Shown here: one piece after another, positions 2-32,000 of the stretch
Numbering within the stretch: position 1 is the first letter of the stretch
How the letters are laid out: every line of letters begins with the position of its first letter
Assembly (NCBI GenBank): GCA_008932965.1
Contig: WBXG01000012.1
Span: 1 to 32,000 of the forward strand
Source: Verrucomicrobiota bacterium
GTDB taxonomy: Bacteria; Verrucomicrobiota; Verrucomicrobiia; Chthoniobacterales; UBA6821
Direction of reading: 5' to 3'
DNA: 32,000 nucleotides
Position numbers and translations under genes: made by a program
Notes under the pieces: model-generated
Told to the model about the DNA's origin: nothing
Databases searched by the model: none
The model's input: only the letters and a program-made list of their open reading frames with translations

Positions 2-1828
2 AAAGCCCAAAGAGTAAATGAAGAAATTGCCAAGGCAACTCAACGTCCTTATGAAGAGAGCTCCATTTTTGAAAATGCCAATGACGTACAAGCCTCTTCC
101 ATAGAGGAACATGAGGTTGCACAGGTAGAGAAACAAGATATTTATCCTTTATCCCTGACTCGTTTATCAGCAGAAGAGGAGGAATATTATCCTCAGAGTA
201 CTATTATCAGTTCTTACGAGTACGATGGTCCTGAAGAAAATCAATGCACCCGGGTACGTGTTTTGAAAACAAAGGGGATTTATCAAGATAATAAACATCG
301 CTATATTAGAACGGAGGAAACAATTGATAAAGTAACAGGCTATGTCATTACACATTTCGGAGAATCAATAGCTAATCACCTGTTGCTAGATCTCCCAGAG
401 GGCATGTCAGCTAGGGATTTTATTTCAAAATTACGTCACCCTGAGTTTATTCCAAAATTACGCGACCCTGAGTTTATCTCAAAATTACACCACCCTGAGG
501 ACACGCACCTTCAACTCAAGCTTTATCAAGGGAATCCCCATGAGTTGGTTTATGAATATTCTGAGGAGGGCTCCTTAGCAGAAATTTCTACTGAAATTTA
601 CAATAGGATTTGGGAAGAATTTCCAAGCGCTCTCTGTGAGCGTAATCACATAGCTCATCTCGATGCCGGCTCTCAGGGTAAAAATAAGAAACCTGATTTT
701 AGTGAAACTCAATGGAATCTTAATAAAATTCAGGCAAAGAGTGAATGGTGCAACTTATCTCCAAAAAATCCAGATAAGAGAGTAATTGTTGCTGTTATTG
801 ATTCGGGAATAGATTTAAGTCATCAAGCACTGAATCAAAATTTTCATGACTCATTCAACGGCATCGCTCTTTCGCATGATATCGATCACGATGTTACCGA
901 TGATGTGAATCATGATGTTACCGATAATTTGGGTCATGGGTCACATGTGGCAGGAATCATTGGGGGTTACAGTGAGAATAAATTTTTTGGTGTTGCTGGA
1001 AAATCAGTAAGACTGATGATCTGCAAGGCCTTTGATAACGATCAATCTCGTATGGACTCAAGGAATGATTTAGGTCATGAGGCCTCTTTTTTAAAATCTC
1101 TTCGTTACGCTGTTGAAAATGGTGCTAAAATCATTAATTACAGTGGTTCTTTTGGAACACGACCTTCTATTCAAGTTCTAAATGCACTTTTAGAGGCTCA
1201 AAGAAAAGGGGTGATTATCGTTCTCTCAGCTGGCAATGGAAAAGATACTAGTAAGGAAATATTTAACCCGTTAAGTTTCGGAAGCAATCTTGATGATGCT
1301 TCTGTTTTTCCATACAACAAACTACAAAATGACACCTCACTTGACACAGTGAATCAAAAATTGAGATCTTTTATACCCAACAAACCCTCAAGATATCCTC
1401 TTAAATACCAATTAGATAATATGGTTGTCGTTGCTGCAACTACTGCAGATGATAAATTGGCACCATTTTCCTTTTATGGAGTGGAGGCAGTTCATATTGC
1501 GGCTCCTGGAGAATATATTTTGTCAGCATGGTCTAATAAGAAGAATGGTCCTACTTATAAGATGGTAAGTGGAACCTCTCAAGCAGCACCGCATGTCACA
1601 GGAGCATTAGCACTTTTAATGACTCGTTATCCAGAAGAACACTATGCCAAAGCTAATAATCACCCTATTAGACCTAATGAGGGTGAAGCATACTATCAAT
1701 TTATTATTCGTATTTTATTGGAAAATGCAGAGAAACTCCCATCCTTAGAGGGGAAAATAAAAGAAGGAAGAAGGCTAAATATAGCAAGAGCGATGAATCC
1801 TGAAAAACAAACATTTGACTCGCTCTAA
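2..1828 (+). CDS. Subtilisin-like (peptidase S8) serine protease, 5' end outside the window
   Basis: This frame is open from nt 2, with no stop before the TTG at 263 used by the ORF track, so the CDS probably enters from the left edge. S8 catalytic motifs occur in order: VAVIDSGID (Asp), GHGSHVAGI (His), SAGNG (Asn), SGTSQAAPHVTG (Ser). Confidence 0.85.
   Translation, partial: KAQRVNEEIAKATQRPYEESSIFENANDVQASSIEEHEVAQVEKQDIYPLSLTRLSAEEEEYYPQSTIISSYEYDGPEENQCTRVRVLKTKGIYQDNKHRYIRTEETIDKVTGYVITHFGESIANHLLLDLPEGMSARDFISKLRHPEFIPKLRDPEFISKLHHPEDTHLQLKLYQGNPHELVYEYSEEGSLAEISTEIYNRIWEEFPSALCERNHIAHLDAGSQGKNKKPDFSETQWNLNKIQAKSEWCNLSPKNPDKRVIVAVIDSGIDLSHQALNQNFHDSFNGIALSHDIDHDVTDDVNHDVTDNLGHGSHVAGIIGGYSENKFFGVAGKSVRLMICKAFDNDQSRMDSRNDLGHEASFLKSLRYAVENGAKIINYSGSFGTRPSIQVLNALLEAQRKGVIIVLSAGNGKDTSKEIFNPLSFGSNLDDASVFPYNKLQNDTSLDTVNQKLRSFIPNKPSRYPLKYQLDNMVVVAATTADDKLAPFSFYGVEAVHIAAPGEYILSAWSNKKNGPTYKMVSGTSQAAPHVTGALALLMTRYPEEHYAKANNHPIRPNEGEAYYQFIIRILLENAEKLPSLEGKIKEGRRLNIARAMNPEKQTFDSL
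419..499 (+). repeat. In-frame tandem repeat, 3 x 27 bp, inside the subtilase CDS
   Basis: Units 419-445, 446-472 and 473-499 each encode F-I-[S/P]-K-L-[R/H]-[H/D]-P-E. A few substitutions separate the units. Confidence 0.9.
884..925 (+). repeat. Imperfect 24-bp in-frame duplication (HDVTD motif) just upstream of the catalytic His
   Basis: GATCACGATGTTACCGAT (884-901), then GATGTG, then AATCATGATGTTACCGAT (908-925). Encodes DHDVTD-DV-NHDVTD. Confidence 0.6.
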
Positions 1829-2004
1829 TAATTCTGACGGATCGTGATGAGGGAGCTGCGAAGGTTGATGGATAGGGTTCAGGCGAACAATGAGATCTAA
1901 CAACGGCTATGTGTGTACATACTGCCCGAGGAAGACTTTGGGATCAACGTAGCATCCACCTGACTTCCCGGCTTCCGTAGTAGATCAGAATGAAATATTT
2001 GGGC
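1829..2004 (+). mobile_element. MITE-like element, subfamily A, left arm truncated
   Basis: Aligns over most of its length with 2694-2870 and 20781-20957. The right arm GATCAGAATGAAATATTTGGGC is followed by TA. Only ATTCTGA (1831-1837) survives of the left arm. The element begins right after the subtilase stop codon. Confidence 0.8.
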
Positions 2005-2007
2005 TAG

Positions 2008-2049
2008 CTTCCCAGCTTCCGCAGGTTATTAGTATGAAACATTCAGGTT
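2008..2049 (+). mobile_element. 42-nt right-end fragment of a subfamily-A element
   Basis: CTTCCCAGCTTCCGCAGGTTATTAGTATGAAACATTCAGGT matches the last ~42 nt of copy 20781-20957 with a few substitutions. It sits directly downstream of the preceding copy. Confidence 0.6.
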
Positions 2050-2116: not shown

Positions 2117-2713
2117 ATGCAAACTAGTATACCAAGATATCAAGATGCTACTCATTCTTCACCCAGTAGCGTGTCAGCTACTGATTCACTCACAACTAAC
2201 AGCTCTCACGCAGAAAGCAAAATCGGAGACTTTTTAGGAACAAAAATTTATGAAGGTTCAAGCTCTACTGGCGAAGTGAAGCGATTAGTTTCACAGATAG
2301 AGGAAAAATTAAATCGTCAGAAGGTCAATCAACAAATTGTGAAAGGCACGCCTAGGATCTATCCAGGGTATCCAGTCTCAAATGATTTGGATGTTACAAT
2401 TAATCCATGGCATTCTAATATCGCAGATTTTTATTCTGAAGACTCAAAAGTATTAGATTCCAATAATCCCTCACGTTCCCATAGTCAAGATGCTTCAGAT
2501 ACTTCAGATGCTTCAGAAATAGATCCTGATGGTCTCACTATGGAGAATATTTATACCGAGGACCCAGAAATTACGCCCCGAACAAATCCATTAAAAAATC
2601 CCAATGAGAGTGAAAGCACTCATTTCACAATGGGGTCGCTCAAAAGAGGAAATCTTGTCATAGGAGAAAAGGAATATCCAAGAGAGTCACTTAACCCGGA
2701 TATTTCATACTGA
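2117..2713 (+). CDS. Hypothetical Ser/Asp/Asn-rich, probably disordered protein (198 aa)
   Basis: ORF only. I recognise no motif and no TM segment, and the composition is low-complexity. The stop codon TGA (2711-2713) lies inside the left arm of the next element. Confidence 0.45.
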   Translation: MQTSIPRYQDATHSSPSSVSATDSLTTNSSHAESKIGDFLGTKIYEGSSSTGEVKRLVSQIEEKLNRQKVNQQIVKGTPRIYPGYPVSNDLDVTINPWHSNIADFYSEDSKVLDSNNPSRSHSQDASDTSDASEIDPDGLTMENIYTEDPEITPRTNPLKNPNESESTHFTMGSLKRGNLVIGEKEYPRESLNPDISY

Positions 2714-2870
2714 TCGTGACGAGGAGGCCACGAAGGCTGATGGGGCAAGGCGAGTGATGAAGTCTGACGACGGCTGTATGTTTCATACTGCCCGAGTAAA
2801 ACTTTGAGATCAACGCAGCATCCATCTGGCTGCCCAGTCTTCGCAGGTGATCGGTATGAAATATCCGGGT
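2694..2870 (+). mobile_element. MITE-like element, subfamily A, full length (177 nt)
   Basis: 22-nt arms 2694-2715 and 2849-2870 pair with a single T:G. TA (within TTAA) flanks both sides at 2692-2693 and 2871-2872. No conserved ORF. Confidence 0.85.
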
Positions 2871-2973
2871 TAACAAGATGAATTTTTTTGACTTAGTTCT
2901 TGCTATAAAAAAGGCAATAGAGCATCTTATCGAACTAATTTTTGAACCAATTTTTTGGAACACATCTTCGGCC

Positions 2974-3327
2974 ATGACTATTATTGAAACTATCGAACAG
3001 GAGCAACTCAGAACGGATCTTACCCCCTTTGAAGTGGGTGACACGATTCGCGTCCATACACGCGTTATTGAAGGCGATAAAGAACGCATTCAGATTTATA
3101 CAGGAATTGTGATTGGTCGTAGAGGAACCGGCATTAATGCTTCTTTTACAGTACGTCGTGTTTCTTACGGAGAGGGAGTAGAACGTGTGTTCCCTCTTCA
3201 CTCCTCGGGTATTGCTAAGATTGAAGTTGAAAAACGAGGATCTGTTCGTCGTTCAAAGCTCAATTATCTTCGCACTCGCAAAGGAAAGTCAGCAACGACG
3301 GTCAAAGAACGGGCTGCAGACAAGTAG
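2974..3327 (+). CDS. rplS: 50S ribosomal protein L19
   Basis: Typical L19 sequence ([20 protein letters not shown]..., RRSKLNYLR). The start is placed at the in-frame ATG 2974, giving a 117-aa protein. The 32 extra N-terminal residues of the tracked ORF are not L19-like. Confidence 0.9.
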
Positions 3328-3453
3328 ACTTCGTTAGAATTTTACTCAGGCCAAGTGCTTTGGCCCTATGGTAATTAGGATCTCTTATTCTCAGTCATGA
3401 AGGGTATGATGCATTGCTGCGTTGATTCACTTTGCTTTTGATAATCAATAAAG

Positions 3454-4116
3454 ATGCAACCTGTCGTATCATCTTCAAAAAACTTTCCAACGCTCGAGGC
3501 TGAAGCCCTTTTATTATCACGAGGAATACGACCTGTAGCTGGAGTAGATGAAGCTGGTCGCGGACCCTTAGCGGGCCCTGTAATTGCTGCAGCCGTTATT
3601 TTGCCAGAAATTCTCGATGGTCCCTTAAAAAAAGCCTTGTCACGTTTGGATGATTCCAAAAAATTGAGGCCTAAAATTCGAGAAGAACTTTTTATCATCC
3701 TAACAACAGATCCTCATATTTGTTGGGCTTTGGGAGAGTCCAATGTAGAGGAGATTGGAGACCTCAATATTCTTCGTGCAACAGCTCTTGCCATGAGACG
3801 TACCCTACTTGCATTAACAAGAACACCAGCTCATGCCTTAGTCGATGGATTACCCGTGCGTGATCTCCCTGTACCTCAGACAGCTCTCGTTGGAGGAGAC
3901 GGGCTCTCCCTTAGCATTGCTGCAGCAAGTGTGATTGCTAAGGTCACCCGAGATCGCATTATGGATGAATTAGATCATGCATTTCCTCAGTATGGGTTTA
4001 GACATCATCGAGGTTATGGAACTTCAGAGCATTTAAAAAAACTCAACCAATATGGACCTTGCCAGCATCATCGACGCGGTTTTAAACCTGTGGATCAAGC
4101 CTCCTTCAACTTCTAA
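3454..4116 (+). CDS. rnhB: Ribonuclease HII
   Basis: N-terminal GVDEAGRGPLAGPV catalytic motif. Length ~220 aa. C-terminal HRRGFKPV-type tail. Confidence 0.9.
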   Translation: MQPVVSSSKNFPTLEAEALLLSRGIRPVAGVDEAGRGPLAGPVIAAAVILPEILDGPLKKALSRLDDSKKLRPKIREELFIILTTDPHICWALGESNVEEIGDLNILRATALAMRRTLLALTRTPAHALVDGLPVRDLPVPQTALVGGDGLSLSIAAASVIAKVTRDRIMDELDHAFPQYGFRHHRGYGTSEHLKKLNQYGPCQHHRRGFKPVDQASFNF

Positions 4117-4489
4117 AGGCCCCAAGGCCCTTGGATTATGGGGAGAACGTTATGCAGCACAAACCTTGCGCCGTCACGGCGTTAAGATTCTTTATCGTAA
4201 TTATCGAGCTCCGCAGGGAGGAGAAGTCGATTTAGTCTGTCGAGATAGAGAGACACTTCTTTTTGTAGAGGTCAAAACACGGCGTGTTGAAAAAAACTTT
4301 CGTCCTTTAGATGCAGTAAATCATAAAAAACAAATGTTAATTAAACGAGGAGCACTCTCGTGGCTTCGCTTACTGGGCAATCCTGATATCCCTTTTCGAT
4401 TTGATGTCATCGAGGTGATTGCCACTCACCCACCCCAAGCACGTTGGATTGAGAATGCTTTTTTACTACCAGATCCTTTTCGATATTAA
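4052..4489 (+). CDS. yraN: YraN-family (UPF0102) putative endonuclease
   Basis: GERYA..., GGEVDLVCRD and LLFVEVKTRR motifs of the YraN family. The start is uncertain: ATG 4052 overlaps rnhB by 65 nt and I saw no later canonical start in frame. Confidence 0.75.
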   Translation: MDLASIIDAVLNLWIKPPSTSKGPKALGLWGERYAAQTLRRHGVKILYRNYRAPQGGEVDLVCRDRETLLFVEVKTRRVEKNFRPLDAVNHKKQMLIKRGALSWLRLLGNPDIPFRFDVIEVIATHPPQARWIENAFLLPDPFRY

Positions 4490-4667
4490 CCTGGATACTT
4501 CATACTGAAGTGTCATGAGGCGCCGTGCAAAGCTTATAAGTACAAGGCGGGCGAAGGATTGCGACGACGGCTACATATTTCATACTGCCCGAGGAGCAAT
4601 TCGAGACTAACGCAGTATCCATTAGGTGTTCGCAAGCCGCAGCAGAATCAGTATGAAATATCCGGGT
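4489..4667 (+). mobile_element. MITE-like element, subfamily B, full length (179 nt)
   Basis: Arms ACCTGGATACTTCATACTGA and TCAGTATGAAATATCCGGGT. Flanked by TA at 4487-4488 and 4668-4669. It fills the whole space between two convergent stop codons. Confidence 0.85.
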
Positions 4668-7033
4668 TAACGCTCTTGCAACACGGAATGCTCTATCAAT
4701 GCTTGTATTGCTTGTAGAAAAGGGGCTCTCTCACTTGAATCGAGTGCCAGTTTTTTTTGAATCCACAATTCTGCTTTTTGTTGTGCACTCTTGAGCGCTT
4801 CATGGACTGCATTTGCATTAGTAATACATAGAATTAGTTTTTCTAATGATCCCTCCTGGAGAAGATCATTACGTTTTCTTAAGTTTTCAGCAATCCGGGC
4901 AATCTGTTTTTCATCATGGTAATCATGAAACTGAGCAAGAATTGACCTCATATCCTCTACTCCCTGTGCAGCATCCATTCGCCCTCTATGTGCAGCATGA
5001 TAGGTCTCAATCAAATAAGGGTGAAGCCATGAAGTCTCTCGAAGCATTTTTCCAGTATCAGCTTCCAGCAAGCTCATGAGCTGATCTCCGCACAAAGTAT
5101 TCCATTCAGCCAAATCAAACAACGTGCTGGAGTCAGAATAATATTTTTCAAATCGATCGAGGAGCGGAGTGATTGAAGAAGAAAAAGTCTCACTAACCGA
5201 TTTAGAAATATGATCACAGGAAGTGGCAGCCTGTAAGGCATGCTTGGAATCTTCTAATATTTTTTCATTTTTACTCGGAGAATGAAATATACCTGATCTT
5301 TTCTTTTCTTGGAGTGGAGTGCTCTGCTTCTGCACCTCTACTAAAGAGTCTCGAGCAGAGGTTAATTTAATTTGATTAAGTGCTTGCCCATTTTTAAAAA
5401 AACTTTGGGCAGCATTAAAATGAGTAGTGATGATTTTAGCAGCACTAGATCGCTCATTTTCAATACCAGCAAGTTTAGAGTCTATAGATTCAACTCTAGT
5501 ATTAATTTCATCGGCAACTAAATTAGGATCCTTTATTTCAGCTCTTAATTTCCAAAGAAGAGATTTCTTACTTTGTAATTTCTTCATTGACTCAAGATAG
5601 AGATCCAATCCTCGTTGCACTTCATGATACTGATTCTCGAGCTGACGATAAACTCCCTGCTCTTGATCTGCATCAAGAGCCTTGCAAGCTACTTTATCGA
5701 GGTACTGCAATTGTATCGTAAGGCAATACCGTGTTGCTTCACAGAGCATCTGTAAGGAGGTGAGCGATGGCTTTGATCCATCTCTATTGTCGGATCCTGC
5801 TGCAGTAACTTGATGGAAAGCTGAGTGCTTTTCTAACTTAGAGATGTGAGAAATGAGAGCACCTAACTTGTGTTGTTTAGCATGCTCTGTTCTAAAATGA
5901 GTTAATCGCTTTTCTCGTAATAACCTCTCCTCACTTTCGTGCTGATTCTGTAAGTCAACCATCGCTTGCAAGCGTTGTTGTATTTCTTGATTTTCTTTTT
6001 TTAATCTTTCGATTTCCTGAGTGTGAGCATCTTCTCGAGCGGTAAAGTTAACATGAAAAGCTGCTATTATTTTTTCAAAGAGAGGATGGGGCTTGACTTC
6101 TGATGAGGTCGATCTGGAAAGAGGAAAATAAGAAGCAAGGTCTCTAAAGAGAAATTTCACTTCTTTATGAGAAGTACTATTTTGACCATTACCAAAGTCC
6201 TCTCTTGTTATTAGATTTCCTTGAGCATCGACCCTCCAATTATCTTTTACATCAATCTCTTGTATATTCTTTGCTTTTTTGAAGGCTTCTATATTGGGGT
6301 AAGGATAGAATGACTTGGTCTGCGCATAGATGACTTTTTGAAAAAAAGTACGGCTTTGAGGTAGTGGATCAATATCAGGAAAAAACTCCACCTGATCAGC
6401 CCCTTCATAAAATGAATAGATAGGGCGTCTTCCTCTCAACCCATCAGCAAAACCCTTCATACAGGAACGTTGATCTGGTTGGAATAGAGTAGTGACGGTT
6501 GCATGCCCAGTAATATCATCAACCATAACACTTCCACCAGTAAGGCCTGCCCTTTCAAGCTCTGCTCGTTCTTGAGCATTTTGATGCACTATTGCTAACT
6601 CTTGGGGGGAACTATTCCCTCCTTGGACTCCTTCGATATCAGGATGCAAGCAACATGAATCTAACACTCTATAACTCCCATGAATCAGGGGCCCCATGAT
6701 CAGTGCTCCAGCCAAAAGAACAGAACATTTTTCAAAAGTGGTGAGACTATCCCAATTGGAAAATCCTGCCTCCATGCTGGATCCTTCCTTTACTATTTTT
6801 GAAGAAGTTAACTGAAAAAAAAGAATGTTAGATTTAAGATCGGGGTCAGTTTGAGCAGGCGTTAAAGAAAATGATGGGTCATAGGAATTTTTCCAATCAC
6901 AGTAACTCTTGGTATCATTCCAAGAAAGAAAGCAAATGGGATGATCTAAGGTTTCAACATTAATAACCTCATAGTGATACTCTCCAGGGCTACCAGTACG
7001 TTGAATAGAAAAAACACTGGAGCCTCTTCCCAT
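4667..7033 (-). CDS. Large hypothetical protein (788 aa), C-terminal two-thirds coiled-coil / Gln-Glu-Lys rich
   Basis: Long uninterrupted ORF. One hydrophobic stretch (CSVLLAGALIMGPLIHG) near residue 105. Heptad-like, charged, Q-rich sequence from about residue 330 onward. I recognise no catalytic motif. Confidence 0.8.
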   Translation of the reverse strand: MGRGSSVFSIQRTGSPGEYHYEVINVETLDHPICFLSWNDTKSYCDWKNSYDPSFSLTPAQTDPDLKSNILFFQLTSSKIVKEGSSMEAGFSNWDSLTTFEKCSVLLAGALIMGPLIHGSYRVLDSCCLHPDIEGVQGGNSSPQELAIVHQNAQERAELERAGLTGGSVMVDDITGHATVTTLFQPDQRSCMKGFADGLRGRRPIYSFYEGADQVEFFPDIDPLPQSRTFFQKVIYAQTKSFYPYPNIEAFKKAKNIQEIDVKDNWRVDAQGNLITREDFGNGQNSTSHKEVKFLFRDLASYFPLSRSTSSEVKPHPLFEKIIAAFHVNFTAREDAHTQEIERLKKENQEIQQRLQAMVDLQNQHESEERLLREKRLTHFRTEHAKQHKLGALISHISKLEKHSAFHQVTAAGSDNRDGSKPSLTSLQMLCEATRYCLTIQLQYLDKVACKALDADQEQGVYRQLENQYHEVQRGLDLYLESMKKLQSKKSLLWKLRAEIKDPNLVADEINTRVESIDSKLAGIENERSSAAKIITTHFNAAQSFFKNGQALNQIKLTSARDSLVEVQKQSTPLQEKKRSGIFHSPSKNEKILEDSKHALQAATSCDHISKSVSETFSSSITPLLDRFEKYYSDSSTLFDLAEWNTLCGDQLMSLLEADTGKMLRETSWLHPYLIETYHAAHRGRMDAAQGVEDMRSILAQFHDYHDEKQIARIAENLRKRNDLLQEGSLEKLILCITNANAVHEALKSAQQKAELWIQKKLALDSSERAPFLQAIQALIEHSVLQER

Positions 7034-14068: not shown

Positions 14069-14748
14069 TCAGGGCAAGGAAGAGTCTTCAGCAACTATTG
14101 GAATGTGCAATGGCAGAGGTAGCTCATTGGTGAAGAACAATTTTTTTAAATTATCATATTTTAAACTTAAAAGAAAGTTTGAAAAGTAATGGGAAATAGT
14201 GATCGCTGGCCTATCAACGTACCTATAAAAAACAACTGAGACCAAGATAGAGATGAGCGAGTAGAGGAAAAAATTTAGTAAAAGAGCTAGAGAGGTGTGG
14301 GGTAAAAAAAGATAGAAGGCACAGGAGAGAGAGCAGAGGATGAGAAAATGGAGTAGATAGAGTCCATAGGAGATCCTTCCTAAAAATTGAAAAATTGGAG
14401 CCTCAAAGATTTTTTTGCCATATCCTTTAACAATAGGAGCTACTAATAAGACAGCTCCAATGGTCGTATAAAAATCTTTTTTCCTAAATACTCCCACAAG
14501 CGGAAGAAAGTCATAATATCTATTTTCAAATTGAAAAGCCCCAAAATAAAAGTGCAATAAGAATAACATAGGGAACCCATTTTTTGGAAATAGTAACGGC
14601 ATGCAAGAGCGACCCAATCATGATTGCAAAGAGAAAAAGTAAAACAGGCCATACCACGTAATCCATCCGCATTTTTATTAATACCGCTCTTTTTGGTAAC
14701 ATCGAAAGTTGAGAATAACCTAGATTCATCAACCCTTGCGACCTCCAT
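14069..14748 (-). pseudogene. Decayed acyltransferase-3 (OafA/YrhL-type) gene: frameshifted and internally shortened
   Basis: The N-terminal family motif DGLRGMA (14647-14667) is in one frame. Its expected continuation VLLFLFAIMIGSLLH is in a second frame, a 1-nt shift near 14646. The C-terminal motif FLGRISYGLYLLH...RYVDRP is in a third frame (ORF 14069-14617). Only ~90 codons separate the motifs, against the roughly 250 I would expect for this family (from memory, not checked). Confidence 0.55.
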
Positions 14749-14751
14749 GTT

Positions 14752-14775
14752 AGAATTGGCATGAAATATCCAGGT
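14752..14775 (+). mobile_element. Right-arm remnant of the MITE-like element
   Basis: AGAATTGGCATGAAATATCCAGGT followed by TA. The core ATGAAATATCC(A/G)GGT matches the right arm with one mismatch. Confidence 0.55.
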
Positions 14776-14955
14776 TAAAAAAACAGTAGCCTTTTTCAGT
14801 AAAATCGGAGGTCTCATACCTGCTCTTGGACACCATAGATCCAACTTTGTTCAAATTAACAAAAAAAAGCTTGCCTCTTTCGCCAAAGAACTTAATGGTT
14901 ATCGGCACTTTTATTTTAGATGTTTTCTCATCATCTAATGCAAAAAAATTATTAA

Positions 14956-18287: not shown

Positions 18288-18344
18288 AATTTCATCATGA
18301 AGTGACATGAGGTGCTATGCAAAGTTTATTAGTATAAGGAGGGG
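18288..18344 (+). mobile_element. Left-half fragment of a subfamily-B element
   Basis: By hand alignment to 31057-31113, about 46 of 57 positions are identical (AATTTCATCATGAAGTGACATGAGGTGCTATGCAAAGTTTATTAGTATAAGGAGGGG). It overlaps the last codons of comEC. Confidence 0.7.
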
Positions 18345-20677
18345 TAACCCGAAGCATTTAGAATCTCCCAATCTTTGTGATCCAAAAACTGATGTAATCT
18401 CACCCTATCTCTTAAAACCTCTAGAATGATTGCTCCTGTTTGCACCTGATCTAGCACGGTGATCCCAGATCCATAAAGGCTCGATTCCAGCTCTTGAAAT
18501 GAGGGACTGGAATGATGTTTTTTAAAAGGATCATTTCCCAAAATCACACAACGTGGTGCTACTGCTTTTATAAAGTCTTCCTCCATTTTTTTCTCCATCG
18601 ATGGAAAAAGAAGAATTGTCGCATGTAATTTCTCAAGTGAGCTATGTTCTAGCAGCCAGGTTTGAAGAGAAATCGAGGAATTAGGAATCCACAAAAGGCT
18701 TGCTTTGCCTAATTGAAACTTTAGGACAAGAGCAGAATCAGAAGAGCCAACAGGTGGATACAAAACTTCTGCAGAGCAGCTCGGAGAAAAATTCAGCTGA
18801 TCCCCCTCACGAAGAACTGTTAACTGCATACCTGATTCGCCGAGCTTTCTTAAAAAATGTTTGAACACAAAAGAATTTCCTTTTTCCTCAGAGGAGAAAA
18901 AAGAGGAGGGTTGAATCTCCTCTAAGAGGGGCACGAGACCGCCTATGGTGGCAGCTCTCTTTTCAGTAATCACGATTCCTTGAAGAGCTGATATTCCATT
19001 TTCTGCAAAAAAGGGAAGGAGGCAATGAGCTGCCTTGTTAGCATTTCCAGTATTGATCATCCATGCATTGCCCTCCACTTGGAGCATCGCAGCTTGTGCA
19101 ACAGGAAAATCAAAAATAGTAAGTTTTGGAGAGCGATTCATTGAAAAGCCAACTGAAAACGAAGTCAGAGGAAGCAGGCTGCATCCATGAACGACCATCA
19201 AGAGAATTTTGGCACAGAGCCAATTGCTATTATTAAAAACAGGTGCCACCCATGGAAAGAAGGGCGCAACAAGAACTGCTAAAACTGCAAGAGCAAGAAT
19301 TAAAAAGGCTATTGGAACAGCAATCACATTGGCCACCAAGGAAGAAAAAGAAAGAAGATGAAAATAAAAAAGTGTTGGAAGTAAAGAACCGATCCATGCG
19401 GCAGCAGAAACAGCCACAAGCTGAGTAAAGTGATGACACAAGTCATAGCGCCATTTCTGAAATGGGGTGATTATTCTTTTTGGAAGGAAAGGATCATGCT
19501 TGTAGAGCGGATGAAGTATTTTTTGAAATGGAGTTGCTAAAAAAAGAATAGAGAAGACCACGCAGAAGGAAAATTGCCACCCTATGGAAAAAAGAAGATT
19601 TGTTTGCGATAGGAGCAGACAAAAAGCTGCTGCTGCAAGGCTATTGATCATCTGGGGTCGTCGAGATACAAGAAAACCAATGAGAAAGAGGGAGCTCATG
19701 AAAGCCGCTCTAAGACTTCCAATTCGAAAGCCAGTGATGGCTACATAAAAAAAAAGAAGCGGAATCGTCACAAGAACAGCAGACCAACGTGGCAGCCGAA
19801 GCATTTTTAAAAAAAACCAAATAATGACCGCAAGCATCCCAACATGGAGTCCACTCACAGCAAAAAGATGCATTGTTCCAGTTAGTTTAAAATCATCTAT
19901 GAAATCAACAATTTCCTCTTCTTGAGAGCCAAGAGCAATAGCCTTAATAAGCTTCATCGCAGTAGAATCATCCGTGATCCCAAGAGTGATCCATTCTCCT
20001 ATCTTTTGGCGACACTCCAGAGCCATCCTCATGAGTTGATGGAGCTCCCCAGAGGAAAGAATACGACCTGGATCTGAGGGATCCATTCTAAGTTCAGTGA
20101 AGACTTCTTTGCGAGCTAGCCACGTTTTGGCATCAAACTCCCCTGGATTTCGTGGGCCTTGAGGGGAGATTGCCTGGGCTCTCAACGATACTCTCTCTCC
20201 ATATAGCAGAGGAGGTCCCTCCCAATGAACAAACATCGTCACTGGGAGAGTTAGCTCGGATATTCTATCTGTTTGGAGAAAAAATGAACTGTAATGATTT
20301 GAAGAGACCTTTACCTCACTAGCCACCCTCCCCTCTACAGCAATATCATCACCTCTTTTTTCTAAAAGAGAAGCAACCTGATATGCTGGAGATTCCTTCC
20401 ATTGCCATGCATGAAGAGTTGCAAAGCAGAGTGCAATAAAGAGAAAGAAGAGACCCTGCTCTATGATGCAGGAAAGGGGGTTTTTCCAAATGAAAAATAA
20501 AAGAACTCCTCCTAAGAGAAGACTCCCCAAAAAAATCCCCCAGCTTGGAAAAGAAAAAATCTCCTCTGTAAGAATCCCTACAATCGCTGCTAAGACGAGC
20601 CCTAGAAAAGGGAAACGCCTGTTCTTTAGTGAAAAAAAATCACTAAAACGAGAACAGGGCAGTAATGGCCATTTCAT
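18329..20677 (-). CDS. comEC: ComEC/Rec2 DNA internalisation channel protein
   Basis: Competence-domain motif HLFAVSGLHVG and many TM helices. The C-terminal region is metallo-beta-lactamase-like but lacks the canonical metal-binding motif (see findings). Confidence 0.85.
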   Translation of the reverse strand: MKWPLLPCSRFSDFFSLKNRRFPFLGLVLAAIVGILTEEIFSFPSWGIFLGSLLLGGVLLFFIWKNPLSCIIEQGLFFLFIALCFATLHAWQWKESPAYQVASLLEKRGDDIAVEGRVASEVKVSSNHYSSFFLQTDRISELTLPVTMFVHWEGPPLLYGERVSLRAQAISPQGPRNPGEFDAKTWLARKEVFTELRMDPSDPGRILSSGELHQLMRMALECRQKIGEWITLGITDDSTAMKLIKAIALGSQEEEIVDFIDDFKLTGTMHLFAVSGLHVGMLAVIIWFFLKMLRLPRWSAVLVTIPLLFFYVAITGFRIGSLRAAFMSSLFLIGFLVSRRPQMINSLAAAAFCLLLSQTNLLFSIGWQFSFCVVFSILFLATPFQKILHPLYKHDPFLPKRIITPFQKWRYDLCHHFTQLVAVSAAAWIGSLLPTLFYFHLLSFSSLVANVIAVPIAFLILALAVLAVLVAPFFPWVAPVFNNSNWLCAKILLMVVHGCSLLPLTSFSVGFSMNRSPKLTIFDFPVAQAAMLQVEGNAWMINTGNANKAAHCLLPFFAENGISALQGIVITEKRAATIGGLVPLLEEIQPSSFFSSEEKGNSFVFKHFLRKLGESGMQLTVLREGDQLNFSPSCSAEVLYPPVGSSDSALVLKFQLGKASLLWIPNSSISLQTWLLEHSSLEKLHATILLFPSMEKKMEEDFIKAVAPRCVILGNDPFKKHHSSPSFQELESSLYGSGITVLDQVQTGAIILEVLRDRVRLHQFLDHKDWEILNASGYPSLY

Positions 20678-20688
20678 TCGATATAAGG

Positions 20689-20750
20689 GACGCCGCTCTT
20701 CGCCGCCTCAGTAGAGACCTGGAGAATATCAAAAACCGTGTCGCAAACTC
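20689..20750 (+). repeat. 28-nt direct repeat copy 1 (20689-20716) plus 20-nt inverted-repeat arm a (20731-20750)
   Basis: GACGCCGCTCTTCGCCGCCTCAGTAGAG recurs exactly at 21013-21040. AAAAACCGTGTCGCAAACTC is the exact reverse complement of 21038-21057. Confidence 0.9.
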
Positions 20751-20780
20751 GCTGAGTCGGATGAAGAGCAAGGAGTCAAG

Positions 20781-20957
20781 ACCGAATATTTCATACTGAT
20801 CGTGACGAGGAGGCCGCGAAAGCTGATGGGGCAAGGCGAGCGATGAAGTCTGACGACGGCTGTGTGTGTACACACTGCCCGAGGAAGACTTCGAGCTCAA
20901 CGCAGCATCCATCTGACTTCCCGGCTTCCGCAGGTGATCAGTATGAAATATTCGGGC
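20781..20957 (+). mobile_element. MITE-like element, subfamily A, full length (177 nt)
   Basis: Perfect 20-bp arms 20782-20801 and 20936-20955. TA follows the right end. The left flank (CAAG) has diverged from TTAG. Confidence 0.85.
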
Positions 20958-21012
20958 TAAGAGCAGAGCCGAGGAGTGTATAGTTAATACACGACGAGGC
21001 GAGCACCGCAGC

Positions 21013-21057
21013 GACGCCGCTCTTCGCCGCCTCAGTAGAGTTTGCGACACGGTTTTT
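21013..21057 (+). repeat. 28-nt direct repeat copy 2 (21013-21040) overlapping 20-nt inverted-repeat arm b (21038-21057)
   Basis: Exact matches to 20689-20716 (direct) and 20731-20750 (inverted). It abuts the stop codon of the lipoprotein gene at 21058-21060. Confidence 0.9.
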
Positions 21058-22433: not shown

Positions 22434-23738
22434 TTATCGATTGACCAATCCAAAGAGGAGCTTGGCCTCAGAGACGATAGTCCCATTAACAATGCACTGA
22501 CAGGTTGCCGAGCCCATATTTTTTCGAGCACGCGTGAGCTCTGCATGAATGAAAAGAGTATCTCCAGGCACTACCGGTTTTCTAAACTTCACTTCATCAG
22601 CACTCATGAAGTAACCAATCTTTCCAGCATTTTCAGTCTTTCGCATCATGATAATACTCGCAACTTGTGCCATCGCCTCTACTTGAAGAACCCCTGGCAT
22701 GACAGGATGTCCTGGAAAATGTCCTTGGAAATAAGGTTCATTGATCGTCACATTTTTAACACCGATTGCTTTCATCAATCCATCAAACTCCACAATACGA
22801 TCTACCATTAAAAAGGGATAACGGTGTGGAAGGACCTTCATCACTTCATCAATATCTAATACCGGTAACGATGACGTCATAGGATGAGGTGCCATCGCCA
22901 AAAGTTCTGAATGACTCTTAGTAATAAGCCGGGCTAGTTCGGTATTGGGTCCATGCCCTGGTCGTATCGCAACAACATGCCCTTGTAAAGGACGTCCTAC
23001 GAGTGCCAGATCACCAATGATATCGAGAATTTTGTGCCTGACAAATTCGTCTGCAAAACGAAGAGGTTCCTTGCTTAAGACTGAATCGCCTCGTACGACC
23101 AAGGCATTCTCGATACTTCCCCCCTTGATGAGGCCTTTATCCATGAGCTCTTTGACCTCTTCATAAAAAACAAAGGTCCTAGCTGGAGCAATCTCCTTTT
23201 CATAAATTTCAGGGGTAATCTCAAGCGACAAATATTGTGTAAAGCGTCCTTGAGGTCCAACCTGAGTGCAGGAAATTCGAAATCCAGAGCCAGGAAAAAG
23301 AGTCATGATCGATCCGGTCTTAGACTCTAGATGAATAGGCTCGTTGACATCAAAAAGAGTTCGTTCCTCCTTCTGTTCTACGATGCCAGCACGTTTAATA
23401 AGATCAACATAGGGTAACGCACTTCCATCCCCAATAGGTGGCTCATTTGCATTCATTTCAATGAGAACATTGTCAACCCTCATCCCTGCAAGAGCTGATA
23501 GCACATGCTCCACCGTATGAATTTTTGCATTTCCTTCGACTAAGGTAGTAGCTCGCTCTACGGTTTTGACATGCTCGGCCTTAGCCTCGATCATGGGTTC
23601 ATCAGGTAAATCGATACGCCTGAATTTATAACCATGACCAGTAGGAGCTGGATGCAGGGTTAAGGTAACATGACCTCCTGTATGCAAAGTACCACCGGTA
23701 AGACAAACTGATTGGGCGAGTGTGCGCTGTTTTTCCAT
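22434..23738 (-). CDS. lpxC-fabZ: Bifunctional UDP-3-O-acyl-GlcNAc deacetylase / 3-hydroxyacyl-ACP dehydratase (LpxC-FabZ fusion)
   Basis: LpxC motifs HTVEHVLSAL and HKILDIIGDLAL in the N-terminal ~290 aa. FabZ motifs LPHRYPFLMVDRI and FQGHFPGHPVMPGVL in the C-terminal ~145 aa. Confidence 0.92.
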   Translation of the reverse strand: MEKQRTLAQSVCLTGGTLHTGGHVTLTLHPAPTGHGYKFRRIDLPDEPMIEAKAEHVKTVERATTLVEGNAKIHTVEHVLSALAGMRVDNVLIEMNANEPPIGDGSALPYVDLIKRAGIVEQKEERTLFDVNEPIHLESKTGSIMTLFPGSGFRISCTQVGPQGRFTQYLSLEITPEIYEKEIAPARTFVFYEEVKELMDKGLIKGGSIENALVVRGDSVLSKEPLRFADEFVRHKILDIIGDLALVGRPLQGHVVAIRPGHGPNTELARLITKSHSELLAMAPHPMTSSLPVLDIDEVMKVLPHRYPFLMVDRIVEFDGLMKAIGVKNVTINEPYFQGHFPGHPVMPGVLQVEAMAQVASIIMMRKTENAGKIGYFMSADEVKFRKPVVPGDTLFIHAELTRARKNMGSATCQCIVNGTIVSEAKLLFGLVNR

Positions 23739-28203: not shown

Positions 28204-29022
28204 ATGGATCTTTTTATTCCCACCAGTATCTCCTTTACTCAGGCCTGTTCAGAGCTCACCCATCTTGGAATTGGGGCCCATCAAGATGACCTCGAAATCA
28301 TGGCCCTGCATGGAATTTTGGAGTGTTATAAAAATCCCATACAACATTTTGGAGGAATTATCTGCACCCATGGCAGTGGTAGCCCGCGTTCAGGAACTTA
28401 TGCTTCCTACAGTGATCAAGAGATGGCCCATACCCGCAAAAAAGAACAACATCATGCTGCACGCTTAGGTGGTTATCACTTTGTAACCCAACTTGATTTT
28501 TCTTCCTCACTCCTACAAGACCCCTGTAGCCACGATCTCGTTGATGCCCTTTACGAAATACTCAAGCAACTCCACCCTCAGGTGATTTATACCCACCATC
28601 CTCTTGATAAACACCCTACCCATCGTGCTGTCTGCCGCGGGGTGATTGAGGCTCTCAGACGTTTACCAGCAACACAGCATCCAAAAAAGTTATTAGGAGG
28701 TGAGGTCTGGCGCAGTCTTGATTGGCTCAATGATGACGATAAAATCTCACTTGATGTCAGTGCTCATCCTCAGCTTACAGAAAAATTGATTTCTCTTTTT
28801 GATTCTCAGATTGCTGGAGGGAAACATTATGACCTCGGTACGCTTGGGAGATATAGAGCTAATGCCACCTTTACTGATCCTCATCGGGTCGATCTTGCAA
28901 CTCATATTGCCTATGCTCTTGATCTGAGACCCCTTTTAGAAAACCCACAACTCTCCCTCCAGGAATTTGCACTCGGTTTTGTCCGTCATTTCCATGAGCA
29001 AATTAAAAAAGAACTCTGCTAA
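28204..29022 (+). CDS. PIG-L / LmbE-family N-acetylglucosaminyl deacetylase-like protein
   Basis: GAHQDDLE variant of the AHPDDE motif near the N-terminus, and a downstream HPLDKHPTH His cluster. Confidence 0.7.
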   Translation: MDLFIPTSISFTQACSELTHLGIGAHQDDLEIMALHGILECYKNPIQHFGGIICTHGSGSPRSGTYASYSDQEMAHTRKKEQHHAARLGGYHFVTQLDFSSSLLQDPCSHDLVDALYEILKQLHPQVIYTHHPLDKHPTHRAVCRGVIEALRRLPATQHPKKLLGGEVWRSLDWLNDDDKISLDVSAHPQLTEKLISLFDSQIAGGKHYDLGTLGRYRANATFTDPHRVDLATHIAYALDLRPLLENPQLSLQEFALGFVRHFHEQIKKELC

Positions 29023-29039
29023 TCCGGATATTTCATGAA
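29022..29039 (+). mobile_element. Solo left-arm remnant of the MITE-like element
   Basis: ATCCGGATATTTCATGAA preceded by TA matches TA-ACCCGGATATTTCAT(ACT)GAA with one substitution and a 3-nt gap. No other element sequence follows. Confidence 0.5.
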
Positions 29040-30243
29040 TCTCCCCTTCCTCTTACTCCTTACTGCTAGCACTCTTTTATCTGGAATTTTTCTTGGATGG
29101 TGGCTTCGTACGCGACGAGCAACCCAAGAACTTTTCGAGGCTATTGCTCCTTGGAAAAAACAAGTCGACGATCTTCTAGCATCTGCAGATCGCAAGCAAC
29201 AGGAGCAGCTCCAACTTACGGAGATTATGACAGCTCAGTTTCGTAACCTTGCTACAGAAATCTTAGAAAAGAAAACAGAGCAGCTCACTCAAGAAAGCCA
29301 AGAGCAATTAACTCATGTTCTCTCACCTCTCAAAGAGAATCTCGAAATCTTTCGAAAACGTGTGGAGGAAATCCATGGAGCAAGTCTTCACCATCACGGA
29401 AGCCTTCAACAGCAATTACAACAACTTGCGGCTCTCAATCACCAACTCTCAACGGATGCTCAAAATTTAGCTTCGGCCCTGCAGGGAAAATCTCAACGAC
29501 GTGGAGCTTGGGGAGAGCTCATTTTAGAACGTACCCTCGAGCTCTCAGGCTTAGAACGAGGGCGAGAATTTGAGCTGCAAGTCTCGACTTCCGAGCGTCT
29601 TCGTCCCGATGCAATTATTTATCTTCCAGAAGATCGAATTATTATCGTCGATTCCAAAGTCTCTCTTGTTGACTATGAACGCGCCTGTAATACGACCACG
29701 GAGAGCGATCGACAGCAAGCACTCGCACGTCACGCTGCAGCAGTTCGCACCCATATCAAATCTCTTTCTGAAAAAGGATACCCTACTCTTTTCGAGGGCA
29801 AAACACTTGAGATGACCTTGATGTTTCTTCCTATTGAACCTGCCTTTGGTGCTGCACTTACTGCCGATTCTCAGCTTTTTGAATTTGCCTTTGCTCATCG
29901 CATTATCCTAGTCACCCCGAGCACTCTCCTTGCAGCACTGCGAACAATCCATCATTTTTGGAAATTTGAAAAACAAACCCGAAACGTTTTAGAAATTGCG
30001 CGTTTAGGAGGTGTACTACATGATCGTTTTGTCGATTTTTTAAGTCATCTTCTCAACATACGAACTCAACTAGCTAAAACACTCAACGCTCAGGATGAAG
30101 CTATTGCACGTCTCTCATCGCAAAAAGGAAACCTCATCACTACCGCACAGCGCCTCCAAACCCTAGGAGCCAAAACAGAGAAAAAAATGCCTCAAGAAAT
30201 CATCGATCAGGTAGCATTAGAAAAAGCCATCAAGGAGGAATAA
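29035..30243 (+). CDS. rmuC: DNA recombination protein RmuC
   Basis: N-terminal TM helix, a long coiled-coil, and a C-terminal nuclease-like region with RPDAIIYLPEDRIIIVDSKVSL. Confidence 0.85.
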   Translation: MNLPFLLLLTASTLLSGIFLGWWLRTRRATQELFEAIAPWKKQVDDLLASADRKQQEQLQLTEIMTAQFRNLATEILEKKTEQLTQESQEQLTHVLSPLKENLEIFRKRVEEIHGASLHHHGSLQQQLQQLAALNHQLSTDAQNLASALQGKSQRRGAWGELILERTLELSGLERGREFELQVSTSERLRPDAIIYLPEDRIIIVDSKVSLVDYERACNTTTESDRQQALARHAAAVRTHIKSLSEKGYPTLFEGKTLEMTLMFLPIEPAFGAALTADSQLFEFAFAHRIILVTPSTLLAALRTIHHFWKFEKQTRNVLEIARLGGVLHDRFVDFLSHLLNIRTQLAKTLNAQDEAIARLSSQKGNLITTAQRLQTLGAKTEKKMPQEIIDQVALEKAIKEE

Positions 30244-31042: not shown

Positions 31043-31049
31043 GGAGTTA

Positions 31050-31229
31050 GCCCGGATATTTCATACTGAAGTGTCATGAGGCGCCGTGCAAAGCTTATTA
31101 GTACAAGGCGGGCGAAGGATTGGGATGCCGGGCTGTATGTTTCATACTGCCCAAATCACAATTCGAGACTAACGCAGTAATGATGAGCTTTCCACAAGCC
31201 GTAATAGATTTAGTGTGAAATATGCGGGC
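31050..31229 (+). mobile_element. MITE-like element, subfamily B, right half degenerate (180 nt)
   Basis: The left ~75 nt are nearly identical to 4489-4565. The right arm TTTAGTGTGAAATATGCGGGC is decayed. Flanked by TA at 31048-31049 and 31230-31231. Confidence 0.8.
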
Positions 31230-32000
31230 TAGTCCGGATGTTTCGGAGTAACACTATTTTTCTTACGTTCTGCGAAACGCTCTAAAACCACAAAGAAAGA
31301 GGGAACCAAAACGACTGCCAAACAGGTTGAAGCTAGCATTCCTGAAGCAACAGCAATACCGAGTGATTTCCGAGCATTGGCACCTGCACCGGAGGCAAAG
31401 ACAAGGGGCATCACTCCAACAATAAAGGTGATGGAGGTCATTAAAATCGGACGAAAGCGATTAATAGCAGCCATCGATGCAGCCTCGATGATTGCGTGGC
31501 CTGCAGCACGATACTCACGAGCCATTTCTACTACAAGAATGGCATTTTTCGCAGAGAGTGCAATAAGAAGGACAAGACCAATTTGGACGTAAATATTATT
31601 GGCTAATCCTATTCCTCCTAATGCTACGACTGTTCCAAGTAAGGCGAGAGGAACGGCTAAAATAACAGCAACAGGGGTAATCCAACTTTCATACTGACCT
31701 GCAAGAACCAAATAAACCAAAAGAAGAGCAAGCCCAAAAACAAGATAGGTGGAGGCTCCTGCAAGTTTTTCTTGATAGGACATCGCAGTCCAGGAGGTTT
31801 TAGCACCAGAAATCAATTCTTCATCAGCAATCTTTTGTAACTCTTCTAATGCTTGTCCTGAACTCGTTCCATGAGAGGGAACTCCAATAATAGATGCAGA
31901 GGGGTAAATATCGTAGAGCGTTATTGTCGAAGGTCCAAAGGAGTGATCAATTTTTACTAGTGAGCCAAGAGGCACCATGGAATTTGTCTGGCCACTTGTC
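31229..32000 (-). CDS. RND (AcrB/HAE1-type) efflux transporter, C-terminal part; continues beyond the right edge
   Basis: AcrB-like TM7-12 region (AGQYESWITP..., SAKNAILVVEMA, RFRPILMTS). The frame stays open upstream of the tracked Met to nt 32000. Confidence 0.88.
   Translation of the reverse strand, partial: TSGQTNSMVPLGSLVKIDHSFGPSTITLYDIYPSASIIGVPSHGTSSGQALEELQKIADEELISGAKTSWTAMSYQEKLAGASTYLVFGLALLLVYLVLAGQYESWITPVAVILAVPLALLGTVVALGGIGLANNIYVQIGLVLLIALSAKNAILVVEMAREYRAAGHAIIEAASMAAINRFRPILMTSITFIVGVMPLVFASGAGANARKSLGIAVASGMLASTCLAVVLVPSFFVVLERFAERKKNSVTPKHPD

Follow-up and report, generated by a model that had tools for sequence, protein, structure and literature searches.

What is the repeat of about 180 nt that recurs along the first 32,000 nucleotides of contig WBXG01000012.1 (assembly GCA_008932965.1), from a Verrucomicrobiota bacterium of the order Chthoniobacterales, and how does it come to sit at the very ends of genes? 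We refer to this whole stretch of 32,000 nt as the window. An earlier note, made from the letters of the window, had read the repeats as MITEs (miniature transposable elements with inverted repeats), and our analysis supports that reading: the repeats are small, end in terminal inverted repeats, lack a transposase, occur as many dispersed copies and are flanked by a target duplication. They very probably constitute a family of non-autonomous DNA transposons of Chthoniobacterales that duplicates a 4-bp YTAR target and survives in genes in the manner of the Rickettsia palindromic elements (RPE).

The repeat family is real, as a search with a profile built from the window copies (with an E-value for each copy) and a search for terminal inverted repeats recovered all five copies reported in the earlier note. 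The coordinates given there were right to 2-4 nt; the flanking 4-mers had been left out. All full copies are bounded by terminal inverted repeats (CCCGGATATTTCATACTGA...) of 23-25 nt that are 91-100% complementary. The element measures 174-183 nt between the duplications, and its only open frames are the 60-61 codons of a repeat-encoded peptide. The modal length with both 4-mers is 184 nt, so that an insertion adds 180 nt (60 codons).

The family had also been expected to extend beyond the window, and it does. The exact 18-mer CCGGATATTTCATACTGA, scanned against species-representative genomes, was present in at least 88 stretches. The profile produced 202 non-overlapping matches, 98-99 of them full length, in 610 kb of sequence from five genomes, at a density of 1.6-4.5 elements per 10 kb. 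Loci fetched around one copy carried 5-7 copies per 20 kb.

A census of flanking duplications and empty sites, a check proposed along with the family, returned 4-bp direct repeats and empty sites with one 4-mer. Counted in element orientation, identical 4-mers flank 60 of 98 copies (TTAA in 29, CTAG in 22, TTAG in 9), and inverted flanks of the form TTAG...CTAA occurred once. The copy L050:2524-2710 (L-numbers label loci outside the window) is nested in another copy at gagtCTAAcgcag, and joining its flanks restores an intact element; with about 35 intact copies, the gap at this site is exactly 4 nt. At an empty site, comparison of L062:1422-1605 with L051:4634-4735 leaves a single CTAG. The window copy at 20777-20960 sits in a repeat whose other copies carry just one 4-mer where it is inserted. 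At 17 junctions of neighboring copies the 4-mer is shared or overlapped, as expected if each insertion recreates two YTAR targets. Thus the element inserts at 5'-YTAR-3' with a direct duplication of 4 bp. Extension of the inverted repeat and duplication of TA are disfavored because the TTAG/TTAG flanks are direct and inverted flanks were seen once.

The main feature, which the earlier note had missed, lies in the reading frames of the element. Counted from where the duplication starts, frame 0 is YTA-RCC-CGG-ATA-TTT-CAT-ACT-GAT and encodes L-T/A-R-I-F-H-T-D; frame 1 opens with TAR, an immediate stop; frame 2 gives N/S-P-D-I-S-Y, six codons that are followed by the TGA stop of CATACTGA. The other strand, by symmetry, shows the same three behaviors. 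For five of the seven subfamily consensuses (all five of 184 nt) frame 0 is stop-free on both strands, and the remaining four frames have 1-7 stops apiece; both strands are open by chance in 2-5% of shuffles per consensus (ends kept, hairpin kept or not). Therefore, the previous description of the repeat as non-coding, with no conserved reading frame, fails at the level of the family.

We considered a copy to be within a gene if the open reading frame (ORF) continued for 40 codons or more to either side of it. Long ORFs contained 17 of the 98 full copies, all in frame 0 (stop-free by this selection criterion). Of these, 8 are in sense and 9 in antisense orientation, and a length of exactly 184 nt was found for 16. 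Copies outside genes measure 182-187 nt and have stops present. The host genes encode Dxr, GlnD, a MacB/FtsX permease, a low-molecular-weight (LMW) protein phosphatase, an ArnT-like transferase, AroD, PyrF, a PD-(D/E)XK nuclease and RnpA, with Pfam domains lying on either side of the insert or split by it. For example, the Dxr host aligns to residues 8-44 and 144-448 of PDB 2c82 with the insert in between, and an ortholog of the LMW phosphatase (L011), 65% identical, is without exactly the inserted block. A DsbH-like gene with a copy encodes 781 aa versus 685 aa in its ortholog, and a DUF2071 gene with a longer variant of the element encodes 308 aa versus 217 aa (91 codons more). An insertion in RnpA that seemed common to two genomes was rejected, as the similarity was that of the element peptide alone.

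Independent gene calls on other contigs (including L095), those of the DsbH-like and DUF2071 genes among them, span copies. We infer that the in-gene copies are translated, because only stop-free copies that add a multiple of three bases were found in genes. The encoded peptides are hydrophilic, with grand average of hydropathy (GRAVY) values of -0.5 to -0.9. With the antisense peptide of the window as query, an exhaustive HMMER search across 1.84 billion representative proteins gave 94 protein clusters, mostly short spurious ORFs; long hosts among them included aldose 1-epimerase, AroD, shikimate kinase, ACPS and FtsX. The sense peptide found 25 proteins, for which the only two organism names given by the source were Verrucomicrobia and Chthoniobacterales. 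We also observed that public protein catalogues contain dozens of "hypothetical proteins" of 50-150 aa that are translations of this element.

Stop codons are the other place where genes and copies meet. Among long ORFs (at least 80 codons) that reach an element end, the duplicated TAR serves as the stop codon in 31 (in 30 of them without an extra codon); another 11 terminate six codons into the element, and 13 continue through it. In the window, a stop codon on the duplicated TAR is the usual situation.

The internal organization of the element turned out to be more varied than the two subfamilies described earlier: we found seven or more sub-clusters. The family is modular, with several types of left and right arm that are matched or mosaic, and some arms appear flipped. 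At the element center (GGCTGTATGTGTACATACTGCC) the terminal-repeat core CATACTG appears again as an inverted pair. Each of the seven sub-cluster consensuses folds into one hairpin of 66-73 bp with a free energy of -92 to -105 kcal/mol. Folding runs end to end in 80 of 89 copies (median 68 pairs), and the mean free energy of the copies was -86 kcal/mol compared to -51 kcal/mol for shuffled sequences. RNAalifold, applied to the mixed alignment of 89 copies, recovered the terminal stem and the central hairpin alone because the arm subfamilies are out of register; folding per cluster was used instead. A cross-arm complementarity matrix showed weak covariation, at the level of modules only.

Some relatives of the element depart from the modal size. 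Longer MITE variants (about 200-285 nt) with an extra inner module occur at L095:9424-9686, L089:10094-10292, L013:5246 onward, L038:1031 onward and L074:5606 onward. At L026:7391-7448 there is a minimal element of 58 nt made of two terminal repeats and a short spacer.

Nearly all listed matches to CCGGATATTTCATACTGA fall in four metagenome-assembled genomes (MAGs) of Chthoniobacterales (Verrucomicrobiota, Spartobacteria), namely Kiruna_bin-02438, Tobar2m-G38, Deming_bin.170 and SMAG_U8253, from mine and lake sources. The hosts are a group of uncultured freshwater Verrucomicrobia. The organism of the window is a fifth species, whose MutS and LpxC-FabZ DNA is 75-79% identical to that of the Kiruna MAG. 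The nearest copy in the same genome is typically 93-94% identical (maximum 98.3%) and the nearest copy in another genome up to 96%; for example, window 31047-31244 and L011:327-524 are 93.9% identical. Housekeeping and flanking DNA, on the other hand, is only 73-79% identical between the host genomes. Since copies reach 96% against this background, the comparison suggests horizontal spread or a strong constraint on the element. Old insertions are present as well, as decayed copies stand at the orthologous site of window 29020 and L060.

The 18-mer had no match in viral contigs, the element had none in plasmid or phage collections, and a query of 34 nt from the end gave chance plasmid matches only. 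An exact match of 19 nt to the terminal repeat was seen at L040:86-104, on a Coxiellaceae MAG contig, adjoining a long ORF (Fic-like by eye) and with the element body absent; it is probably a chance match or a mis-binned fragment.

How, then, might the element live among genes? In the mechanism that we propose, terminal inverted repeats (CCCGGATATTTCATACTGA...) surround a body that is an imperfect palindrome, and a DDE transposase acting in trans, with an IS5-type choice of target, would insert the element at YTAR and duplicate the 4 bp. The sequence of the element would make the insertion nearly harmless in any frame and on either strand. With entry in frame 0, YTA would be read as Leu, the 180 nt added would be free of stops, and the gene would gain 60 hydrophilic residues. 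With entry in frame 1, the TAR of the target would be the gene's own stop codon, which the duplication would recreate, and in frame 2 the TGA of the terminal repeat would halt translation six codons into the element. Owing to such harmless entry, copies would persist at stop codons, in the gaps between convergent genes and, in frame, within housekeeping genes. Part of this is shown by the data, namely the terminal repeats, the duplication of 4 bp at YTAR, nested as well as tandem insertion, and the survival of copies both in frame 0 and at stop codons. More tentatively, and as a possibility that we favor less than its converse, selection among element lineages may have made the element harmless to translation in all entry frames on both strands, letting it colonize essential genes, with horizontal spread between species in addition. 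If true, conserved enzymes would be receiving 60-residue segments again and again from a natural system of this kind.

A number of observations weigh against this account. No transposase was found in the 610 kb, and all-against-all BLASTP showed no multicopy ORF there. E. coli IS5 InsH had no BLASTP match among all ORFs of at least 120 aa in the same sequence, and no transposase Pfam family was present among the genes called in about 90 kb of later loci. A parent insertion sequence (IS) was sought through orphan terminal repeats (up to four mismatches), and all candidates were truncated copies, other arm subfamilies or chance matches in unrelated taxa. The ends of IS5-family elements usually start with GG or GA, and those of the present element start with CCCGG (CCCGGATATTT). 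Exact 4-bp duplications are also made by the IS701 family (PMC2266710). Because of these ends and the IS701 duplications, IS5 is one possible parent family among others.

Other difficulties concern the symmetry of the element and the in-gene set. Among the 98 copies there were 0 CTAA/CTAA duplications compared to 9 TTAG/TTAG; the sense strand forms the more stable hairpin in 86 of 89 copies; and among copy-private departures from Watson-Crick pairing, G.U outnumbers A.C (146 vs 61). A plain cut-and-paste model predicts neither the strand asymmetry nor the missing CTAA/CTAA. Selection on host transcripts leaves the strand asymmetries unexplained, because orientation relative to host genes is unbiased. 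Also, neighboring repeats produced two artefacts among the 17 in-ORF cases (window 20777 and L082:6791), and 2-3 of the 17 have doubtful upstream ORFs.

The asymmetries bear on the alternative that the repeat is a palindromic element of REP/RAYT or IS200/IS605 type, moved as a single-stranded hairpin without target duplication. The whole element is indeed a hairpin, one of its strands folds better in nearly every copy, and the private changes favor G.U over A.C. Still, a 4-bp target duplication is present, contrary to this model; terminal inverted repeats of 23-25 nt are what one typically sees in DDE transposons; the 610 kb showed no gene for a Y1 transposase; and REPs are 20-40 nt long with GTAG or CGTC tags (PMC3733652), while the element has 184 nt and is tag-free. 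We therefore regard it as very unlikely. The same low standing belongs to a MITE that duplicates TA (Correia or IS630/Tc1-mariner type), in which the outer Y and R would reflect a preference for certain targets, with the inner R and Y being part of the terminal repeat. Every flank is centered on TA, and the palindromes TTAA and CTAG cannot separate the TA model from the 4-bp model. However, TTAG/TTAG, found nine times, breaks the complementarity of the terminal repeats and fits a 4-bp direct repeat; the outer flank bases co-vary with the inner bases; and at empty sites there is a single 4-mer and a gap of 4 nt rather than 2. Of the target types named in the earlier note, the IS5-type 4-bp YTAR duplication therefore holds, and the TA duplication of IS630 or Correia type does not, given the TTAG/TTAG flanks and the single 4-mer at empty sites.

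Would a role for the host explain the copies instead? A structured RNA or DNA signal (a 3'-end stabilizer, an attenuator or a small RNA), repeated by happenstance, could account for the very stable hairpin and for the many copies directly 3' of stop codons and between convergent genes; ERIC and Correia, which are other MITEs, affect mRNA stability (PMC2229807). Such a signal is quite unlikely, given that copies take both orientations relative to neighboring genes and lie also within coding sequence, that nested and tandem insertions with target duplications indicate mobility, and that Rfam had no match even at E up to 1. In the copies read, no T run was noticed downstream of the hairpin; no terminator scan was made. 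Secondary effects of copies on mRNA are possible. A role at the protein level, with the 60-residue peptide as a mobile module selected for its function in host proteins, would fit frame 0 being open on both strands in five of seven consensuses, above the chance level of 2-5%, and the persistence of inserts in essential genes. Yet the peptides of the two strands are unrelated except at their ends and are used about equally, the host proteins are mutually unrelated, and the peptides are hydrophilic and of low complexity. More than 80% of copies are outside genes, many with frameshifts or stops. The Rickettsia gmk insert has neutral or slightly harmful effects (PMC2229807), and tolerance explains the data without a peptide function, so that we consider such a function quite improbable. 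Finally, in-gene copies could be removed from RNA like introns, via the hairpin and the 4-nt direct repeats, and leave proteins unchanged; a perfect long hairpin with flanking direct repeats is excisable in principle. Excision would make length and stop content irrelevant, whereas 16 of 17 in-gene copies have exactly 184 nt and 17 of 17 are in frame 0 (stop-free, as they were selected), against 182-187 nt with stops outside genes. No known intron family matched in Rfam, and we hold this idea to be extremely unlikely.

The preferred reading, a MITE family with a YTAR target, can be set beside known systems. The element is a new, uncatalogued MITE family with behavior like that of the Rickettsia RPE. 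Rfam at gathering thresholds reported two tRNAs only in the whole window, and the stretch 2600-4750, which contains two full copies, had no element match at E up to 1; thus the uncatalogued status expected earlier stands. The literature searched yielded no description of such elements in Verrucomicrobia. The RPE (Ogata et al. 2000, as reviewed in PMC2229807, PMC10969869) are likewise palindromic repeats of 100-190 nt with one long stem-loop, found between genes and also fused in frame, with the ORF intact, in many unrelated conserved protein genes, and a transposase is known for neither. The present element differs by its Verrucomicrobiota host and apparently by its sequence, by well-conserved terminal repeats of 23-25 nt and by a demonstrated 4-bp YTAR duplication; the target duplication of RPE is listed as unknown (PMC2229807). 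It also differs in having both strands open, in using both orientations and in landing frequently on stop codons.

YTAR is the documented target duplication of IS5, and the element shares the 4-bp YTAR duplication with IS5 (the IS5 group) and its derived MITEs (PMC5009759, PMC10359306). Unlike for IS5, the 610 kb contained no detected IS5-like transposase and no full-length IS that ends in this way. Correia/NEMIS of Neisseria, ERIC/IRU of enterobacteria, YPAL/RU-2 of Yersinia and QMITE of Coxiella are also small and TIR-bounded (i.e., with terminal inverted repeats) or hairpin-forming, and certain variants of them have open frames and occur as fusions with genes (PMC2229807, PMC5896051). The element behaves like the intragenic forms of ERIC, Correia-107 and YPAL (PMC2229807, PMC10969869, PMC5896051). 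These families, however, duplicate TA or variable targets rather than YTAR, and their intragenic copies are a minority or confined to certain variants. None of the Correia, ERIC, YPAL and QMITE elements is described, in the literature covered, with a terminal sequence that neutralizes all three entry frames on both strands.

The window itself contains five full or near-full copies and 4-5 remnants, among genes of ordinary bacterial housekeeping (L19, RNase HII, RecD2, MlaEFD, ComEC, LpxA, an LpxC-FabZ fusion, MutS) and at a GC content of 43%. A five-way alignment of the copies has a mean column identity of 75%. The leftmost copy, 1825..2006 (+), is degenerate, with an internal deletion in its left terminal repeat (alignment; profile match 1827-2006, E 1e-30), and the TAA of its left 4-mer CTAA (1825-1828) is the stop codon of a subtilase ORF, 263..1828, in the ORF list. 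Directly behind it, in tandem, the repeat search placed a right-end remnant at 2008..2049 (+; profile positions 142-183, E 5e-4).

The full copy of 183 nt at 2691..2873 (+; profile E 5e-57) has TTAA/TTAA flanks and arms of 25 nt that are 96% complementary, and its hairpin has a free energy of -82.6 kcal/mol (z -7.2). The ORF 2117..2713 runs into this copy in frame 2 and ends with NPDISY* at the terminal-repeat TGA (2711-2713); the L19 gene is just downstream of the copy. Another full copy, of 185 nt, occupies 4486..4670 (+; TTAA/TTAA, E 2e-57), where both TTAA provide the stop codons of convergent genes, the YraN-like 4052..4489 (+) and 4667..7033 (-). The copy 20777..20960 (+) has the modal 184 nt, flanks CAAG/CTAA and frame 0 open on both strands (profile 20779-20960, E 8e-55); its host site is a second, unrelated palindromic repeat (20686-20776 and 20961-21057), not a gene. 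The last full copy, of 186 nt, lies at 31047..31232 (+; flanks TTAG/CTAG; profile 31047-31231, E 2e-55), and its right CTAG (31229-31232) gives the TAG stop of the ORF 31229..31978 (-).

Most of the remnants reported earlier were recovered. Besides 2008-2049, the profile found a right-end remnant at 14704..14778 (+; profile positions 111-185, E 7e-4) that ends in TTAA (14775-14778), with tRNA-Val and tRNA-Cys downstream, and a left-arm remnant of the type of the former subfamily B at 18289..18358 (+; positions 12-75, E 1e-6) that, from ORFs and Pfam, contains the stop codon of the ComEC ORF 18329..20677 (-). A solo terminal repeat, CTAA-TCCGGATATTTCAT, at 29020..29037 (+) is not significant alone (E about 2) and is backed by the orthologous site in the Kiruna genome (L060:95-163), which holds a partial copy. 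It lies between the ORFs 28204..29022 and 29035..30243, and the TAA of the CTAA at 29019-29022 is the stop codon of the former. The trace suspected at 31232-31246 was not detected by the profile; a possible further terminal repeat at 31229-31246 has 15/19 matches, including the shared CTAG.

We made some further observations in the window. The second palindromic repeat forms an unrelated family of about 120 nt; the window copy (20686-20776 + 20961-21057) folds at -92.7 kcal/mol with the MITE taken out. Other copies are at L053:2671-2787, L053:2018-2098, L011:4452-4542 + 4591-4681, L035:601-717, L016:3774-3865 + 3914-3999 and L087:2549-2625, and some copies are tandem with a period of 139 nt. 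Three tandem repeats of 27 nt (87% identical) at 416-499, in the subtilase ORF 263..1828, produce a nine-residue peptide repeat. One ORF at 22434-23738 (-) combines LpxC and FabZ/FabA-like domains (a fusion) and adjoins LpxA.

In-frame selfish DNA in bacterial genes has been known mainly from Rickettsia, where target and enzyme are undefined. The same behavior is now seen in environmental bacteria that belong to another phylum; here the 4-bp target is defined and the terminal repeats are clear, which makes the mechanism testable. A mobility step through a single strand or a hairpin, hinted at by the strand asymmetry, would add mechanistic novelty. For genome annotation, the element gives rise to spurious short proteins, broken MAG assemblies and gene calls that are extended or cut. 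Enzymes, Dxr and PyrF for instance, become 60-91 residues longer through the inserts, and pairs of filled and empty orthologs are natural experiments on the tolerance of protein folds to insertion. What stands out is the combination of a defined target, an entry that would be harmless whatever the frame and strand, and a frequent presence in essential genes of environmental bacteria, which together would offer an explanation at the level of sequence for the life of the element inside genes.

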